Source of the DNA: Armatimonadota bacterium
GTDB lineage: Bacteria > Armatimonadota > UBA5829 > DTLH01
Length of the DNA: 64,000 nt
Assembly: GCA_038207085.1 (NCBI GenBank)
Contig: JBBRAE010000003.1
Coordinates: forward strand, 32,001 to 96,000
Reading direction: 5' to 3'
Position 1 is the stretch's first letter; every line of letters begins with the position of its first letter. Of the stretch, positions 21,829-27,973 are shown piece by piece. A program made the translations under genes and the position numbers. The notes beneath the pieces are model-generated. The model was not told the DNA's origin and searched no databases. It was given only the letters and a program-made list of their open reading frames with translations.

Positions 21829-21970
21829 AACTCACTTTGGGTGATCAATATATACTGCTGACGTGACAACACTTGTTTGATGGGGTAATGCTAAGGGGTT
21901 GATCAAACTGCCACTCGCCCGCAGTACAGAACAAAAACATACCCTTAGCGATGGAGGTCCGAGGAAGATC

Positions 21971-23941
21971 GTGGGACATAAGTCACGAATCCTTAAGTTA
22001 AGGCTGCGCGGCCCGGTAATAGCGCTAGTCATCGCCGACGTATTGGCGCTCGCCTTCTCCATCCTGGCGGCGCTGCTGCTTCGGTTCGACGGTGCCACAT
22101 GGCCCGATGTCTACAACCGCTACGTGGGAAACCACCTGACAAGTATGCCATTTGTCGCCGCCTTCTATATCGGCGCACTGGCAGTGTTTCGGATGTACAA
22201 ACGCGCGTGGCGGTTCACGAGCCTCGACATGCTCTGGGACGTGATCGGCGCAAACACCGCTGGTGTCGCCGGGATGATGGTCATCCAGATGATGTTCGAC
22301 GGCAGCCATTTCCCGCGCTCTGTGCTCGTGATGGTATGGGGGTCAGCTATCATGCTGACCGGCGGAATCCGGGTGTTCCTTAGGATGATGAGCGTGCTGC
22401 ACAAATACTCGGGCAAAGAGGACCGCCCATCAGTGCGGGAAAGCCGCCGCAAGCGGGTGGTTATCCTCGGCGCCGGGGCCGACGGCGCAAGCATCCTGCG
22501 AGCTATCCGGGAAGACCCGTACCTGGAATACGACGTGATCGGTTTTCTCGATGAAGACCCCAACAAGATGGGCGTCTACATCAGCAACGTGCGGGTAATC
22601 GGTTCGCTTGAGATGCTAAAGAAACTCGCAGACGATGGGACGATCGATGAGGTCATCGTCGCCCTTCCCGAAGACGCCTGTGAGAAGGTCCGCGAGTATG
22701 TCCTTGATTGCCGGGGCAAGCGCGTGGCGGTGAAGAAGGTGCCCCAGCTCCGGGATACGCTGATCGGCAAGACTGCGATCCAGATGGTCGACTTCGGGAT
22801 CGAGGACTTACTCGGACGCGCGCCGGTGAGCTCGAGCGTCGCGACCATTGGGACCTATATCAAGGGCAAACGCGTGCTTGTGACCGGTGCGGGCGGGTCG
22901 ATCGGCTCAGAGCTCTGCCGACAGATCATGCAGATGGAACCGGCGGCGCTGATCCTTCTCGGTCACGGTGAAAACTCGATCCACCTCGTCCACCAGGAGC
23001 TTCAGGCAAGGTACCGCAACCTGGCGGAGCGACTGAGCTACGTAATCGCAAGCGTATCGAACAAGAACCGAATCGACCAGGTGTTCAAACAGCACCGACC
23101 CAACATCGTCTTTCACGCGGCGGCCCACAAACACGTGCCCATCATGGAGCTGAACGAGCAAGAGGCCGTCAGCAACAACGTCCTTGGCACGCATCACGTG
23201 GCCGACGCCTGCGGGCGCTACGGAGTCGATCGGATGGTGCTGATCTCCACTGACAAGGCCGCCGACCCCTGCAGCATTATGGGGGCGACGAAGTGGCTTT
23301 GCGAGGAAGTGCTGCGCGCGTCTTCGCACATCCACCAGGGCACCTCCTACGTCGCAGTGCGGTTCGGCAACGTGCTTGGCAGCCGGGGGAGTGTTGTCCC
23401 CGTGTTCAAAGAGCAGATACGGCGCGGCGGGCCGGTGACTGTGACTCACCCGGACATGACCCGCTACTTTATGACCATTCCTGAGGCTGTTCGGCTGGTC
23501 CTTCAAGCGGGAGGAGTGGGCAGGTCCGGTGAGCTGTATCTGCTCGACATGGGGAACCCTGTAAGAATAGTCGACCTCGCGCGGGATATGATCCGGCTCC
23601 ACGGCTTCGAGCCCGATGTCGATATCGAGATCGCCTACACGGGAATGCGCCCAGGTGAGAAGCTTCACGAGACTCTGACGGCGTCCGGCGAGGACATTCA
23701 CCGCACCAACTGGGAGGGCCTCTACCACATCAAGCGCCCGCAGTACTTCGTGACCGACGAAGTCTTGGACGCGCTGGTGCATCTGGAGCGGGCAACATCA
23801 AGAGGGTCGTCAGCGGACGTCCGCCGACTGCTGAATCAGCTGATCCCAAGCCAGTGCACTGTCCCCGTCACAGAGTTACAGCAAGAGCTCGAAGAGAGCC
23901 TGGAACACGAGGGAGAATCCCCTCTGCGTTACCACATGTGA
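21971..23941 (+). CDS. Membrane-anchored UDP-GlcNAc 4,6-dehydratase (PglF/CapD/WbpM family)
   Basis: N-terminal TMs; VTGAGGSIGSEL, HAAAHKHVP, ISTDKA, MGATK, RFGNVLGSRGSV; frame is open from 21899. Confidence 0.92.
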   Translation: MGHKSRILKLRLRGPVIALVIADVLALAFSILAALLLRFDGATWPDVYNRYVGNHLTSMPFVAAFYIGALAVFRMYKRAWRFTSLDMLWDVIGANTAGVAGMMVIQMMFDGSHFPRSVLVMVWGSAIMLTGGIRVFLRMMSVLHKYSGKEDRPSVRESRRKRVVILGAGADGASILRAIREDPYLEYDVIGFLDEDPNKMGVYISNVRVIGSLEMLKKLADDGTIDEVIVALPEDACEKVREYVLDCRGKRVAVKKVPQLRDTLIGKTAIQMVDFGIEDLLGRAPVSSSVATIGTYIKGKRVLVTGAGGSIGSELCRQIMQMEPAALILLGHGENSIHLVHQELQARYRNLAERLSYVIASVSNKNRIDQVFKQHRPNIVFHAAAHKHVPIMELNEQEAVSNNVLGTHHVADACGRYGVDRMVLISTDKAADPCSIMGATKWLCEEVLRASSHIHQGTSYVAVRFGNVLGSRGSVVPVFKEQIRRGGPVTVTHPDMTRYFMTIPEAVRLVLQAGGVGRSGELYLLDMGNPVRIVDLARDMIRLHGFEPDVDIEIAYTGMRPGEKLHETLTASGEDIHRTNWEGLYHIKRPQYFVTDEVLDALVHLERATSRGSSADVRRLLNQLIPSQCTVPVTELQQELEESLEHEGESPLRYHM

Positions 23942-23995
23942 GAGCGAGACGGTCCTCCGGGGTATATAACTAATGAGTTTCAATGATTGTTACTA

Positions 23996-24038
23996 CCCCT
24001 CACCCTCACCCTCTCCCCCTAAGGGAGAGGGTGAGGGG
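23996..24038. repeat. REP-like palindrome family A, copy 1 (others at 58256-58304 and 61841-61888)
   Basis: CCCCTCACCCTCACCCTCTCCCCCTAAGGGAGAGGGTGAGGGG; all three copies begin TACCCCTCA and end TGAGGGG. Confidence 0.8.
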
Positions 24039-24078
24039 ATACCAACGAAACTCTGTCCCTACATTGGAGGACGCTGAA

Positions 24079-24366
24079 ATGACTATCATCGAGTTTCTAT
24101 TACTGCTCCTGATCGCGGCAGTCGCAGGCGCGATAGGGCAATCCATAGCGGGTTACGCGGCTGGGGGATTTTTGGCAGCTACGGCAATAGGCTTTATCGG
24201 AGCGCTTCTTGGCATGTGGATCGCCCGATCCACCGGGCTCCCGGAGCCGTTTGCAATAAACATAGGCGGCAGAACGTTCCCGGTGCTCTGGGCAATAATC
24301 GGAGCCGCACTCTTCTCTGCGATAATCCGACTCATCACCTCCCCGACAAGACGTTACCACGCCTGA
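24079..24366 (+). CDS. GlsB/YeaQ/YmgE family small membrane protein
   Basis: ATG after GGAGG; Gly-rich TM helices IGFIGALLG and WAIIGAALF. Confidence 0.8.
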   Translation: MTIIEFLLLLLIAAVAGAIGQSIAGYAAGGFLAATAIGFIGALLGMWIARSTGLPEPFAINIGGRTFPVLWAIIGAALFSAIIRLITSPTRRYHA

Positions 24367-24408
24367 TTCGTGTATTGGCCGGGTAAAAACCGGCCAATAC
24401 GCAATACA

Positions 24409-25737
24409 TCACTTGTGCTTAACCATCCCAAGATAGACATTCGGCACGAAGTGCGGGCTGTGCTCGGGTGTATGGCAGTCCTTGCACGCCTCGCGGATGC
24501 CTTTGGTTTCGTGCTTTGCCTTGTGGCCCGCACCGTGCGGCAGGACATCGGCGTGGCAGGACATACACTCGACCCCACCCAAGCCATCAGTCCCCTTGAC
24601 GCTCCGCTCGATCCTCCGATACATCTCGGAGTGGCATGGCAGACACTCGGGAAGCGTCTTGTTCTGCTTCTCAAGCGTGGTAAGCGCCGTCGCGTGCTTG
24701 GTCGTTTTCCACTGATCGTACTCCGCCTTGTGGCAGGACATACAGGTCTGGTAGCTGTAATAGCCTTCCTTGGGAGTCGACACATGCGTCTCAGTCGTGA
24801 TCGGACCCGGCGTCGACCCGGGGCTGATATTGACGATTCTCGGTGCCTGGAAGTCCTTGACCATCTTCAGGACATCGGCGTCCTCCGGGCAGCTTTCGTC
24901 GATGCCGACCCGTTTGTAGGTCTTCTTCTTGGTAGCACCGTTGATCTCGATGTCCACCTGTGCGATGGCGTTGCCCTGCACGCTGGTCGGGACGATCATC
25001 GTCTCGCCAACCATCTTGGGCTCTACGAGAATCATATTGCCAGTGCCGCCGAGGATGATATCCGGCGCACCGTAGCGTTTGGTGATCTTCTCGATCCACG
25101 CGTCCGACGCCACTTTGCCCTGGTCGAGCACGATCAAGACGTCCGACTTCTGCCGCGCTTCAGCGTAGACCTCATAGCGCTCTTTCAAGAGCTTATAGTC
25201 GTCGATAGCGCCATCGGGAAGCGTCCCAAATGAGACGACACCCACCTTCACCCCGCTGAGGTCGCGGATGATAAACGGCTTGGCGCCGGCCGCCTCGGGA
25301 GCGCCGAGGTTCACTACCGGCATCGACTTATCGTTCATGACCTTATAGAAACTGTCACCAAAGCGCAGGTCAGTCGGCCCGACGCCGACCGCCGAGTAGC
25401 CCATAGCTTTCAGCGCATCGATGACGACCTCAAGCTGACCCGTCTGGGTGTTGGTCATGTTGGGATAAGCGAGGTTTCCGCTTTCCACCGCAATTGTTCT
25501 GGGGTTTTCAGCTCTAAGCTTCTTTATGTAACCAGCTCGTCGAGGCAGACCGCCCGACTTGTGGCCGCCTCACCCACACGGTTCAAGCGTGCCGACCGTA
25601 TCGTTGCTCAAAATGACGGAGATTTTGGAAGGAAGCGAGCTCGCGGCATCAACCGCCCCCGCCACCCAAACAAAAGCCGCCAAAAGAGTCACGGCAAACA
25701 ACGCCCGAACCGCTGCAATAAGATATCTTTTAGTCAT
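24409..25737 (-). CDS. Secreted selenoprotein (Sec56 in a CxU motif): UshA/5'-nucleotidase-like N-terminal domain fused to a tetraheme cytochrome c (c554-like), 442 aa
   Basis: ATG at 25737 starts a signal peptide and reads ...ILSNDTVGTLEPCG-TGA(25572-25570)-GGHKSGGLPRR..., in frame with the ORF-track 24409..25488 frame. Four CxxCH motifs: CMSCH, CLPCH, CMSCH, CKDCH. A SECIS-like hairpin follows the TGA. Confidence 0.88.
25533..25569 (-). promoter_or_regulatory. Bacterial SECIS-like element
   Basis: The mRNA after UGA reads GGCGGCCACAAGUCGGGCGGUCUGCCUCGACGAGCUG. GUCG/CGAC and GGC/GCC stems close a GGUCU apex, with a CGGC/GCUG lower stem. Confidence 0.8.
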
Positions 25738-25773: not shown

Positions 25774-25802
25774 AGTCTACCCACAGTTGAGTAAGATGTC
25801 AA
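25774..25802 (-). promoter_or_regulatory. Sigma70-type promoter of the selenoprotein gene
   Basis: TTGACA-17 nt-TAGACT, ending 36 nt upstream of ATG 25737. Confidence 0.7.
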
Positions 25803-26224: not shown

Positions 26225-27973
26225 TTGGAAGAACGAACTGGGGCTATGCACGGCAGGCTTCGGCTTGCACTGGCGCAGATCAACGCATGCGTGGGCGACC
26301 TTCGGGGCAACACGGACAAGATCATCGAGAATATCGAAAAAGGCAGGAAGGCCGGGGCCGATATCGTCGTATTCCCCGAGCTTGCGATCACCGGATACCC
26401 GCCGGAGGACCTATTGCTCAAGCCTTCGTTCCTTGAGGGCAACCTCGCCGCACTCGACGAAGTCCGGGCGGCGTCTTATGATATCACGACGATCTGCGGG
26501 TTCGTCGACGTGCTCGACGACATCTACAACGCCGCCGCGGTTATCCACAACAGCCACATCGCCGGAGTCCACCACAAAGTTTTCCTCCCGAACTACGGAG
26601 TTTTTGACGAGTTTCGATACTTCCAGAAGGGCACTTCCACCCAGGTCTACAGGCTCGGCGGGCCGCTATTCGGCGTCTCGGTCTGCGAGGATATGTGGTA
26701 CCCTGACGGCCCGCACCGCGCCCAATCTCTTGCCGGGGCACAGGTGCTGATAAATCTCAACGCAAGCCCGTTCTACTCTCTCAAATGGAAATGGCGCGAG
26801 GGCATGCTCGCAACGCGCGCGGGCGACAACTCCGCATTCGTCGCTTACGTGAACATGGTCGGCGGCCAGGACGAGCTCGTTTTCGACGGCCATTCCGTGG
26901 TCTTCGACCCAAGAGCCCGGGCGATCATCCGCGGCAAGGCGTTTGAAGAGGAACTGGTCGTAGTGGACATCGAGGTCGGAAGCGCGTGGCACACCAGACT
27001 CGCCGATCCCCGGTGGCGGCAGGGAGCGGCGCACAAGAACGCCGATTACCCCGTCGAATTGATCGATCTCGGCGCGCAGAAGGGCTCTGAGAGGCCGACC
27101 ATCCCCGAGATCACGGTCATAGAACCGCCTGAGAGGGTCGAAGAGGTATACAAGGCGCTTGTCCTTGGCACGCGCGATTACGTCCGCAAAAACAAGTTCA
27201 AGCATGTAGTGATAGGGCTGTCCGGCGGCATCGACTCGGCGCTCACGGCTGCGATTGCGGTCGACGCGCTCGGCGCGGACTCCGTCACAGGCGTCACGAT
27301 GCCCTCGCAGTTCACCTCCACCGCTACACTCAGCGACGCCGAGGAGCTCGCGAAGAACCTTGGGATCGAGCTCCACACCATCCCGATCAAAGACGTTTTT
27401 GAGAATTACAAACAGGCGCTAAAGCCCGTTTTCGGCGACCGCGAACCCGATGTCGCCGAGGAAAACCTGCAGGCCCGCATTCGAGGCAACTACCTGATGG
27501 CGATCTCGAACAAGTTCGGCTGGCTAGTCCTGACGACCGGCAACAAGAGCGAGATGGCAACCGGCTACGCGACCCTCTACGGCGACATGGCCGGAGGTTT
27601 CGCGGTGCTGAAAGACGTGCCCAAAACCCTAGTCTATGAGCTTTCCGACTATCGAAACAGCCTGGGCCTCGTGATCCCGCAGACCACAATCGACCGAGCG
27701 CCGTCCGCCGAGCTTCGGCTCGATCAGAAAGACGAGGACTCGCTCCCGCCCTACTCCATCCTCGACCCGATCATCCACATGTACGTGGAGGAAGACGCAG
27801 CGCCAAGCGAGATAATCGAGCGTGGCTACCCAGAGGAATACGTCCGCCGCGCAGTGCGGCTGGTCGACGTAAACGAATACAAACGCCGCCAGGCCCCCCC
27901 CGGCGTCAAGATCACCCCAAAAGCTTTCGGCAAAGACCGCAGGCTCCCGATCACAAACCAGTTCAGGGAATAA
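26225..27973 (+). CDS. nadE: Glutamine-dependent NAD+ synthetase
   Basis: Nitrilase domain (VFPEL, LPNYGVFDE, VCEDMW) plus synthetase domain (GLSGGIDS, ENLQARIRG, TTGNKSE, EYKRRQAPPG); alternative start at 26246. Confidence 0.97.
   Translation: MEERTGAMHGRLRLALAQINACVGDLRGNTDKIIENIEKGRKAGADIVVFPELAITGYPPEDLLLKPSFLEGNLAALDEVRAASYDITTICGFVDVLDDIYNAAAVIHNSHIAGVHHKVFLPNYGVFDEFRYFQKGTSTQVYRLGGPLFGVSVCEDMWYPDGPHRAQSLAGAQVLINLNASPFYSLKWKWREGMLATRAGDNSAFVAYVNMVGGQDELVFDGHSVVFDPRARAIIRGKAFEEELVVVDIEVGSAWHTRLADPRWRQGAAHKNADYPVELIDLGAQKGSERPTIPEITVIEPPERVEEVYKALVLGTRDYVRKNKFKHVVIGLSGGIDSALTAAIAVDALGADSVTGVTMPSQFTSTATLSDAEELAKNLGIELHTIPIKDVFENYKQALKPVFGDREPDVAEENLQARIRGNYLMAISNKFGWLVLTTGNKSEMATGYATLYGDMAGGFAVLKDVPKTLVYELSDYRNSLGLVIPQTTIDRAPSAELRLDQKDEDSLPPYSILDPIIHMYVEEDAAPSEIIERGYPEEYVRRAVRLVDVNEYKRRQAPPGVKITPKAFGKDRRLPITNQFRE

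Follow-up and report, generated by a model that had tools for sequence, protein, structure and literature searches.

The window analysed here is a 64,000-nt stretch of DNA from an Armatimonadota bacterium. On its minus strand, a single reading frame extends from position 25737 down to 24409 when an in-frame UGA at codon 56 (25570..25572) is read as selenocysteine (Sec), and the frame terminates at an ordinary TGA. The encoded UshA-like (seleno)protein would be 442 aa long with a tetraheme tail, and U56 lies in the context L-E-P-C-G-U-G-G-H-K-S-G-G-L-P-R-R, forming a P-C-G-U (CxU) motif. Reading through the UGA corrects the gene model: gene callers give a 359-aa fragment (the protein P0002 begins 3' of the UGA), whereas the 442-aa product includes a putative signal peptide. 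A second sample from the same study yielded a contig that crosses the TGA with 0 differences (depth 2.3). Upstream, 37 nt 5' of the ATG, a putative sigma-70-like promoter (TTGACA-17-TAGACT, 25774..25802, minus strand) agrees with the consensus at 10 of 12 positions. The neighbouring genes are unrelated housekeeping genes on the plus strand, namely a divergent glutamine-dependent NAD+ synthetase (26225-27973), a convergent polysaccharide-biosynthesis dehydratase (21899-23941) and a convergent small transglycosylase-associated membrane protein (23983-24366). No conserved gene neighbourhood was found, any given neighbour being common to at most 5 of 20 loci.

The predicted protein starts with a signal-peptide-like helix (residues 1-33, 25639..25737, minus strand), recognised by its basic N-region, hydrophobic stretch and A-x-A end, and modelled as a helix over residues 2-33. 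A 5'-nucleotidase/metallophosphoesterase-fold domain follows (approximately residues 37-300, 24838..25629, minus strand). The AlphaFold model (mean pLDDT 88) was matched by Foldseek to 5'-nucleotidase catalytic domains (3ivd, E 9.9e-19). Active UshA and related 5'-nucleotidases hold a dinuclear metal centre with the ligand motifs DxH, GD, GNH, H and GHxH. Most of this ligand set is missing here: by alignment, DxH has become DT(L/V), GD has become GN, GNH has become GVG-x-x-D and GHxH is lost, leaving the first metal-binding Asp as the only dinuclear ligand retained. Moreover, the C-terminal substrate-binding domain of the active enzymes is replaced by a c-type cytochrome domain (24412..24759, minus strand; PF13435, E 1.3e-9), assigned by Pfam to the cytochrome c554 type. 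Its four CxxCH motifs, at residues 332, 365, 391 and 418, are invariant among 43 aligned homologues, and cytochrome c assembly genes were found in the host genome. That genome also encodes a paralogue of Cys type (C-N-C) in which a nucleotidase fold and a cytochrome domain are likewise combined (G000:C10:19335-20519, minus strand).

The best NCBIfam match was NF041198 (UshA_like_PCGU; 208.8 bits, E 1.3e-61), which fell below the cut-off of 275; the best E value for this model among 32 aligned relatives was 3.2e-62. The protein resembles these COG0737-like CxU selenoproteins in its PCGU motif, its nucleotidase-fold domain and the occurrence of Sec/Cys pairs, and the PCG(U/C) CxU motif is located in the 5'-nucleotidase-like domain; it differs in length (442 aa vs. 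519 model positions) and in its sub-cut-off score. It is therefore a divergent UshA-like branch, probably one of Armatimonadota, that is missed by current models and truncated by gene callers. UshA-like CxU selenoproteins have been catalogued since 2008 (PMC2398784, PMC9312934 and Table 1 of PMC13188914, as far as the accessible text of these sources goes). Both the mechanism and the kind of protein are known, and the SECIS element is almost certainly an ordinary one.

The host genome (100% complete) contains selA, selB, tRNA-Sec(UCA) and selD, all above cut-offs, so that an in-frame UGA aligned with Cys is accompanied by selA, selB, selC and selD. The tRNA-Sec (69.8 bits) is the only UCA tRNA in the genome, and TGA is a normal stop that ends 343 of 1,225 long open reading frames as well as the gene itself. 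Across the class, selA-type and selB matches were present in all 25 genomes with a TGA copy (one selA being partial, in a genome that is 68% complete) and tRNA-Sec in 24 of the 25, and in none of the 20 class genomes without selA and selB was a TGA copy found among the matches listed. On a SelB tree, 23 of the 25 TGA genomes had the host type and one was unparsed; the remaining one gave only a fragment, belonging to a second, divergent SelB type. In five genomes this second type was the only one found, and these carried Cys copies (two) or had no match (three). A class-wide pattern, TGA..GGCGGTCT, was rejected as a marker, as it was present in 53 of 53 genomes including those without Sec machinery and does not discriminate.

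The second SelB type belongs to a divergent selA-selD(AhpD-extended)-selB cluster observed in other genomes (L267-L275; G319, G309, G267, G171, G214, G260, G189, G306 and G312) and absent from the host. The SelB encoded there groups in a clade of its own and has another WH4 signature. Both SelB types occur together in four genomes, and genomes with only the second type have a Cys-type UshA-like gene or none. Several of these clusters lie beside genes for a double-cubane-cluster reductase and a DVU_1556-like methyltransferase. Haft and Tolstoy (2025) are said possibly to describe this neighbourhood, and their work may reportedly also cover the neighbourhoods of the UshA-like family and the double-cubane cluster.

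The original prediction placed a SECIS hairpin just downstream of the UGA, quoting the RNA without naming its strand; the quoted letters match exactly and are those of the minus strand from 25572 down to 25534. The hairpin proper occupies 25539..25558 (minus strand), with a 5' arm at 25558-25552, a GGUCU loop at 25551-25547 and a 3' arm at 25546-25539. It comprises 7 bp from G15-C34 to C21-G27, with one U (U30) bulged on the 3' side, and the 20-nt core has a folding energy of -9.0 kcal/mol. It begins 11 nt downstream of the UGA, and the loop starts 18 nt past it. The G-rich loop differs from that of a terminator-like hairpin lying 3' of the gene's true TGA stop (24372..24400, minus strand; 11 bp, z -2.98), whose loop is U-rich. 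The proposed GGUCU-capped stem-loop is not the minimum free energy (MFE) structure of the quoted 40-mer; in the MFE structure (-15.1 kcal/mol, z -0.60) the loop and the 3' arm are paired with the UGA. The stem-loop does become dominant once the UGA is held unpaired. The probability of the closing pair was 0.96-0.98 when at least the first three bases were kept unpaired, as for a UGA in the ribosomal A site, and in free folds it was 0.03 in a 100-nt folding window and 0.77 in another.

The folding energy of this single sequence is near chance, or at best marginal: z ranged from -0.09 to -1.33 over six folding windows, and for the bare 20-mer it was -2.08, with 9 of 200 shuffles equally good. 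Plus-strand folds of the interval were discarded as being on the wrong strand and not significant in energy, and no Rfam family, SECIS or other, matched the interval. The hairpin agrees with the four bSECIS criteria given in the Fig. 2 legend of PMC13188914, having an apical loop of 5 nt (3-9 nt) on an upper stem of 7 bp (4-16 bp), a G among the first two loop positions (GGUCU), a UGA-loop spacing of 18 nt (16-37 nt) and, for the 20-nt core, an MFE of -9.0 kcal/mol (at most -7.5 kcal/mol). These values, together with its GG-initial loop, also liken it to the consensus bacterial SECIS (bSECISearch; Fig. 2A of PMC13188914). However, a rough version of the rules that we wrote ourselves was passed by 393 of 3,000 random TGAs (13%), and Cys homologues passed this rough filter as well (6 of the 17 close ones and 17 of the 38 distant ones). 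The hexamer GGTCTG at nt 22 is rarer, following 28 of the 107,374 TGA triplets of the host genome. Taken by itself, without comparison, the hairpin is suggestive but no proof of a SECIS element.

The element had also been described as standing in the same register as the SECIS of Escherichia coli fdhF. The fdhF sequence quoted there was correct (NC_000913.3: TGA CAC GGC CCA TCG GTT GCA GGT CTG CAC), as was the placement of GGT CTG, which fills codons +7/+8 (nt 22-27) of each gene, and both have a coding-region hairpin about 11 nt past the UGA; the pairing register, however, is not the same. In fdhF a 4-nt GGUC loop is closed by A21-U26 and a U is bulged in the 5' arm, whereas here a 5-nt GGUCU loop is closed by C21-G27, the bulged U30 lies in the 3' arm, and the loop codons spell G-G-L rather than A-G-L. 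Neither the 5' bulged U nor the A21-U26 pair of the fdhF type is present. E. coli SelB requires the 5' bulged U. The Moorella SECIS has a GGUCU pentaloop closed by C-G, and the recognition region of the host SelB, SSRK(F/Y)VxPLLEY, is as in Moorella. The C-terminus of the host SelB likewise matched M. thermoacetica structures (E 8e-20 and 1.6e-14) far better than E. coli structures (9e-6 and 1e-4), one of which (2pjp) we take to be from E. coli. We found no difference in kind between this hairpin and the consensus bacterial SECIS or the M. thermoacetica SelB WH3-4/SECIS complexes (PDB 1WSU and 2UWM); it is a bacterial SECIS whose geometry is not strictly that of E. coli fdhF. The minimal fdhF SECIS used for comparison, an upper stem-loop of 17-20 nt that SelB binds, is the sequence printed in PMC3834832 and PMC10945757. 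Given the different stem geometry and a host SelB much closer to that of Moorella, E. coli SelB might fail on this hairpin, and an E. coli read-through reporter without the cognate selB could give a false negative.

We compared Sec and Cys homologues drawn from 301 genomes of the phylum, 53 of the class, one genome scan and one metagenome scan. From 149 domain hits, 119 distinct loci were retained after removing 8 without CxC, 6 without G-G-L (2 of them with TGA) and 16 duplicates. TGA occupied exactly this Cys column in 64 of these loci and Cys in 55; the close set (E <= 1e-23) contained 44 TGA and 17 Cys loci and the distant set 20 and 38, respectively. The G-G-L peptide is also a conserved feature of the Cys homologues. 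Its codons, in contrast, depended on the residue at the column: GGC GGT CTN was used in 44/44 TGA but only 4/17 Cys genes of the close set (Fisher p 3.6e-10, a value that treats related sequences as independent, which they are not), in 7/20 TGA and 5/38 Cys genes of the distant set, and at 17 of the 321 G-G-L tripeptides of the host genome as background. After thinning to <60% protein identity, the motif remained in 23/23 TGA vs. 4/13 Cys genes, and a lower stem with at least 3 of 4 pairs in 19/23 vs. 1/13. Median identity among the Sec proteins was 45%, and the codons used for other conserved Gly residues are variable. The suggestion that the Gly-Gly-Leu codons double as the SelB-binding loop of a recoded UGA is thus supported by codon choice and by covariation of the stem (below). 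As independent support for recoding, which the hairpin had been taken to provide, it is weak alone, given that G-G-L is kept in Cys homologues and the energy is near chance; support for recoding comes from the homologue comparison and not from the single hairpin. Closing-pair probabilities below 0.5 were predicted in 7 of the 44 close Sec sequences.

The Sec/Cys state switches nine times on a 59-row tree, and while some Cys tips retain the motif, others have lost it. Both Cys copies at L019 keep it, in a genome that is 97% complete and has no selA, selB or selD. At L111, a tandem pair of 90% protein identity includes a Cys twin without the hairpin. Tandem UshA-like tetraheme pairs were also seen at L009, L017, L019, L026/L045, L041, L100 and L126; with L111 included, some are Sec+Sec, some Sec+Cys and one Cys+Cys. 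Among distant Sec homologues, those of one class family (f4; L034, L056, L061, L066 and L089) have a G-rich 3-nt loop at nt 22 within L-G-G-V codons, the loop position being held while the peptide register is shifted by one codon. Sec-type selD genes of the class (L178-L204) show a different SECIS geometry that the same SelB would read: a strong hairpin places its AGG/CAGGU-type loop in L-A-Q-V-L codons, about 36 nt past the UGA, and there is often a second hairpin nearer the UGA.

Covariation was assessed on an ungapped alignment of the 44 close Sec genes (38 distinct rows). Among the distinct rows, the pair 16-33 was G-C in 10, C-G in 9, U-A in 7 and A-U in 5, and its covariation was 0.284 against 0.134 for shuffled data (0 of 500 shuffles reached it) and at most 0.141 for slid partners, controls that overstate the signal to the extent that the structure was derived from these same sequences and the sequences are kin. 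The wobble base of the Arg codon matched nt 16 in 34 of 38 Sec but 1 of 7 Cys genes. On the tree, positions 16 and 33 underwent at least nine joint changes, compared with two to seven for six control wobble positions, five of them positions other than the partner. RNAalifold with default scoring returned no consensus structure for the 44 rows, apparently as a result of mixing two upper-stem registers, of Ala and Pro type. With RIBOSUM scoring the 7-bp stem was recovered, and it was recovered too when Ala-type (33) and Pro/Ser-type (11) rows were split. A single 3' base is left spare, and its position (nt 27, 28 or 30) shifts according to the Ala or Pro codon. The stem is thus a conserved, covarying structure that is specific to the Sec genes, as is required of a bacterial SECIS. 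With nine Sec/Cys switches and four pair types, the homologues constitute a clean natural experiment on how one set of bases can serve both a peptide motif and a SelB-binding RNA.

A further and unexpected Sec-specific synonymous constraint was apparent in the codon counts immediately 5' of the UGA, at UGU GGG (Cys54-Gly55; 25573..25578, minus strand). The -1 Gly codon was GGG in 44/44 close Sec genes vs. 4/15 Gly codons of Cys genes, and in 13 of 19 readable distant Sec genes vs. 7/34 Cys genes; the preceding Cys codon was TGT in 36/44 close Sec and 4/17 close Cys genes. Elsewhere in these genes, GGG makes up 22% of the Gly codons and GGA 17-18%. In Sec-type selD of the same phylum (n = 63), the -1 codon was GGG in 27, GGT in 22, GGC in 14 (8 from one genus) and GGA in none, and the same codon in Cys-type selD (n = 23) was GGC in 12, GGG in 4, GGA in 4 and GGT in 3 (4 of 90 selD loci were unparsed and one spurious off-frame row was dropped). 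GGA before a Sec UGA was also absent from all 63 UshA-like Sec genes. True Gly-TGA stops of the host genome are unbiased (8, 8, 7 and 6, with GGA at 6/29), and the genome has a tRNA-Gly(CCC). We rejected RNA structure as the cause, since a synonymous codon in place of GGG leaves SECIS folding equally good or improves it (mean 0.64-0.67 vs. 0.56), and likewise a conserved -1-frame peptide from an overlapping GUG, whose length ranges from 3 to more than 39 codons. A motif search of the assembly for the 16S 3' end, which bears on a possible anti-Shine-Dalgarno role of GGGUGA, found none. The bias suggests that the P-site codon may be a second determinant of Sec decoding, with Gly before a Sec UGA selected as GGG (or GGU) and never GGA, a proposal that we put forward tentatively and hold slightly less probable than its converse. 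The likeliest cause would be that termination by RF2 is reduced when tRNA-Gly(CCC) occupies the P site while SelB is awaited, and that selection removes GGA-UGA on account of the out-of-frame AUG it generates (AUGA restart). Effects of the P-site codon are known for E. coli release factors. Such effects on read-through have also been published for eukaryotic stops (PMC9841425, in its accessible text). A literature search over listings and passages of openly available papers found no report of a -1 Gly bias at bacterial Sec codons, which is weak evidence that the bias is new. If functional, -1 GGG would offer a simple rule for better selenoprotein prediction and recombinant selenoprotein yield.

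Considering these observations together, we are highly confident that the hairpin is a bona fide SECIS through which a Moorella-like SelB would decode UGA56. The SECIS is embedded in the codons for (K)-S-G-G-L-P-R-R. With UGA56 in the ribosomal A site, the competing pairing between UGA and loop would be impossible, allowing the 7-bp GGUCU stem to form 11 nt downstream. The winged-helix domains (WH3-4) of SelB would then bind the GGUCU loop and deliver Sec-tRNA(UCA), which would outcompete RF2 at UGA56. The product would be an exported CxU protein of 442 aa, in which a nucleotidase fold lacking metals is joined to a tetraheme tail with attached heme groups. Delivery of Sec-tRNA by SelB and SECIS is an established pathway (PMC4605307 and PMC13188914), and the accessible portions of PMC13326102, PMC10945757, PMC3834832, PMC7590224 and PMC9499178 provide further background on the topic.

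Might the hairpin instead be a by-product of a conserved G-G-L-[AP]-R-R peptide in G+C-rich DNA, and the TGA a nonsense mutation or assembly error in a pseudogene? The near-chance folding energy, the conservation of G-G-L in Cys homologues and the 13% of random TGAs that pass the rough bSECIS filter would all fit such an origin. It is largely refuted by the occurrence of TGA at the exact Cys column in 64 distinct loci, the Sec-specific synonymous choice and covariation, the confirmation of the TGA in a second sample and the listing of TGA copies only in genomes with Sec machinery, and we regard it as extremely unlikely. A TGA elsewhere in the host genome (G000:C17:39581, minus strand), lying in frame between 70 and 615 coding-like codons and lacking a Cys context, is probably a nonsense mutation or assembly error.

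Recoding by SECIS and SelB could also be combined with a regulatory role for the competing fold: in free mRNA, the UGA-loop pairing would be a functional anti-SECIS switch and control recoding. That fold is the MFE of both the 40-mer and the 100-nt folding window, the SECIS has a probability below 0.5 in free folds of 19 of the 44 close Sec homologues, and in 9 of the 44 the -1 GGG pairs with nt 29-31. The register of the alternative pairing nevertheless differs between the window's gene (Pro type) and Ala-type homologues, the SECIS forms even in free folds of the remaining 25 of 44, and competing pairing is a trivial outcome of the repeated GGC-GG of U-G-G...G-G-L; a functional switch is highly improbable. 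Insertion of Cys, Trp or Gly at the UGA, whether by code reassignment or by a UCA tRNA other than tRNA-Sec, with the hairpin merely slowing termination, is scarcely credible. Variant codes and Cys-inserting UCA tRNAs do occur in some bacteria, and Cys stands in the column in 55 homologous loci, but TGA is a working stop in this genome and in this very gene, the sole UCA tRNA is tRNA-Sec, and both selA and selD are present.

For the SECIS-decoded protein, we lean by a modest measure towards a role in periplasmic thiol/sulfur redox, with the CxU motif reduced or oxidised through the hemes, rather than in nucleotide hydrolysis. Redox is favoured because the metal ligands are gone, distant homologues carry added DsbA/thioredoxin domains, and the multiheme selenoprotein MccSep/ExtKL offers a precedent. 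As described in the accessible text of its preprint (bioRxiv 10.1101/2025.11.18.688581), MccSep/ExtKL is an exported protein that combines Sec with c-type hemes, and it offers a functional analogy for sulfur redox. Its architecture is different, and similarity is limited to short heme motifs (NF040886, 17.8 bits vs. a cut-off of 250; 9wt8, E 0.009). Selenium-dependent metal binding or residual hydrolase activity are the alternatives to a redox role.

Scans of the host genome and family checks, which were not exhaustive, found no second convincing selenoprotein: internal stops were absent from the host SelD, three MvhD, seven AhpC-type, the NiFe hydrogenase and two molybdopterin matches. The UshA-like gene may thus encode the host's only selenoprotein. 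If so, this uncharacterised UshA-like family would be the reason that the genome keeps its Sec machinery.
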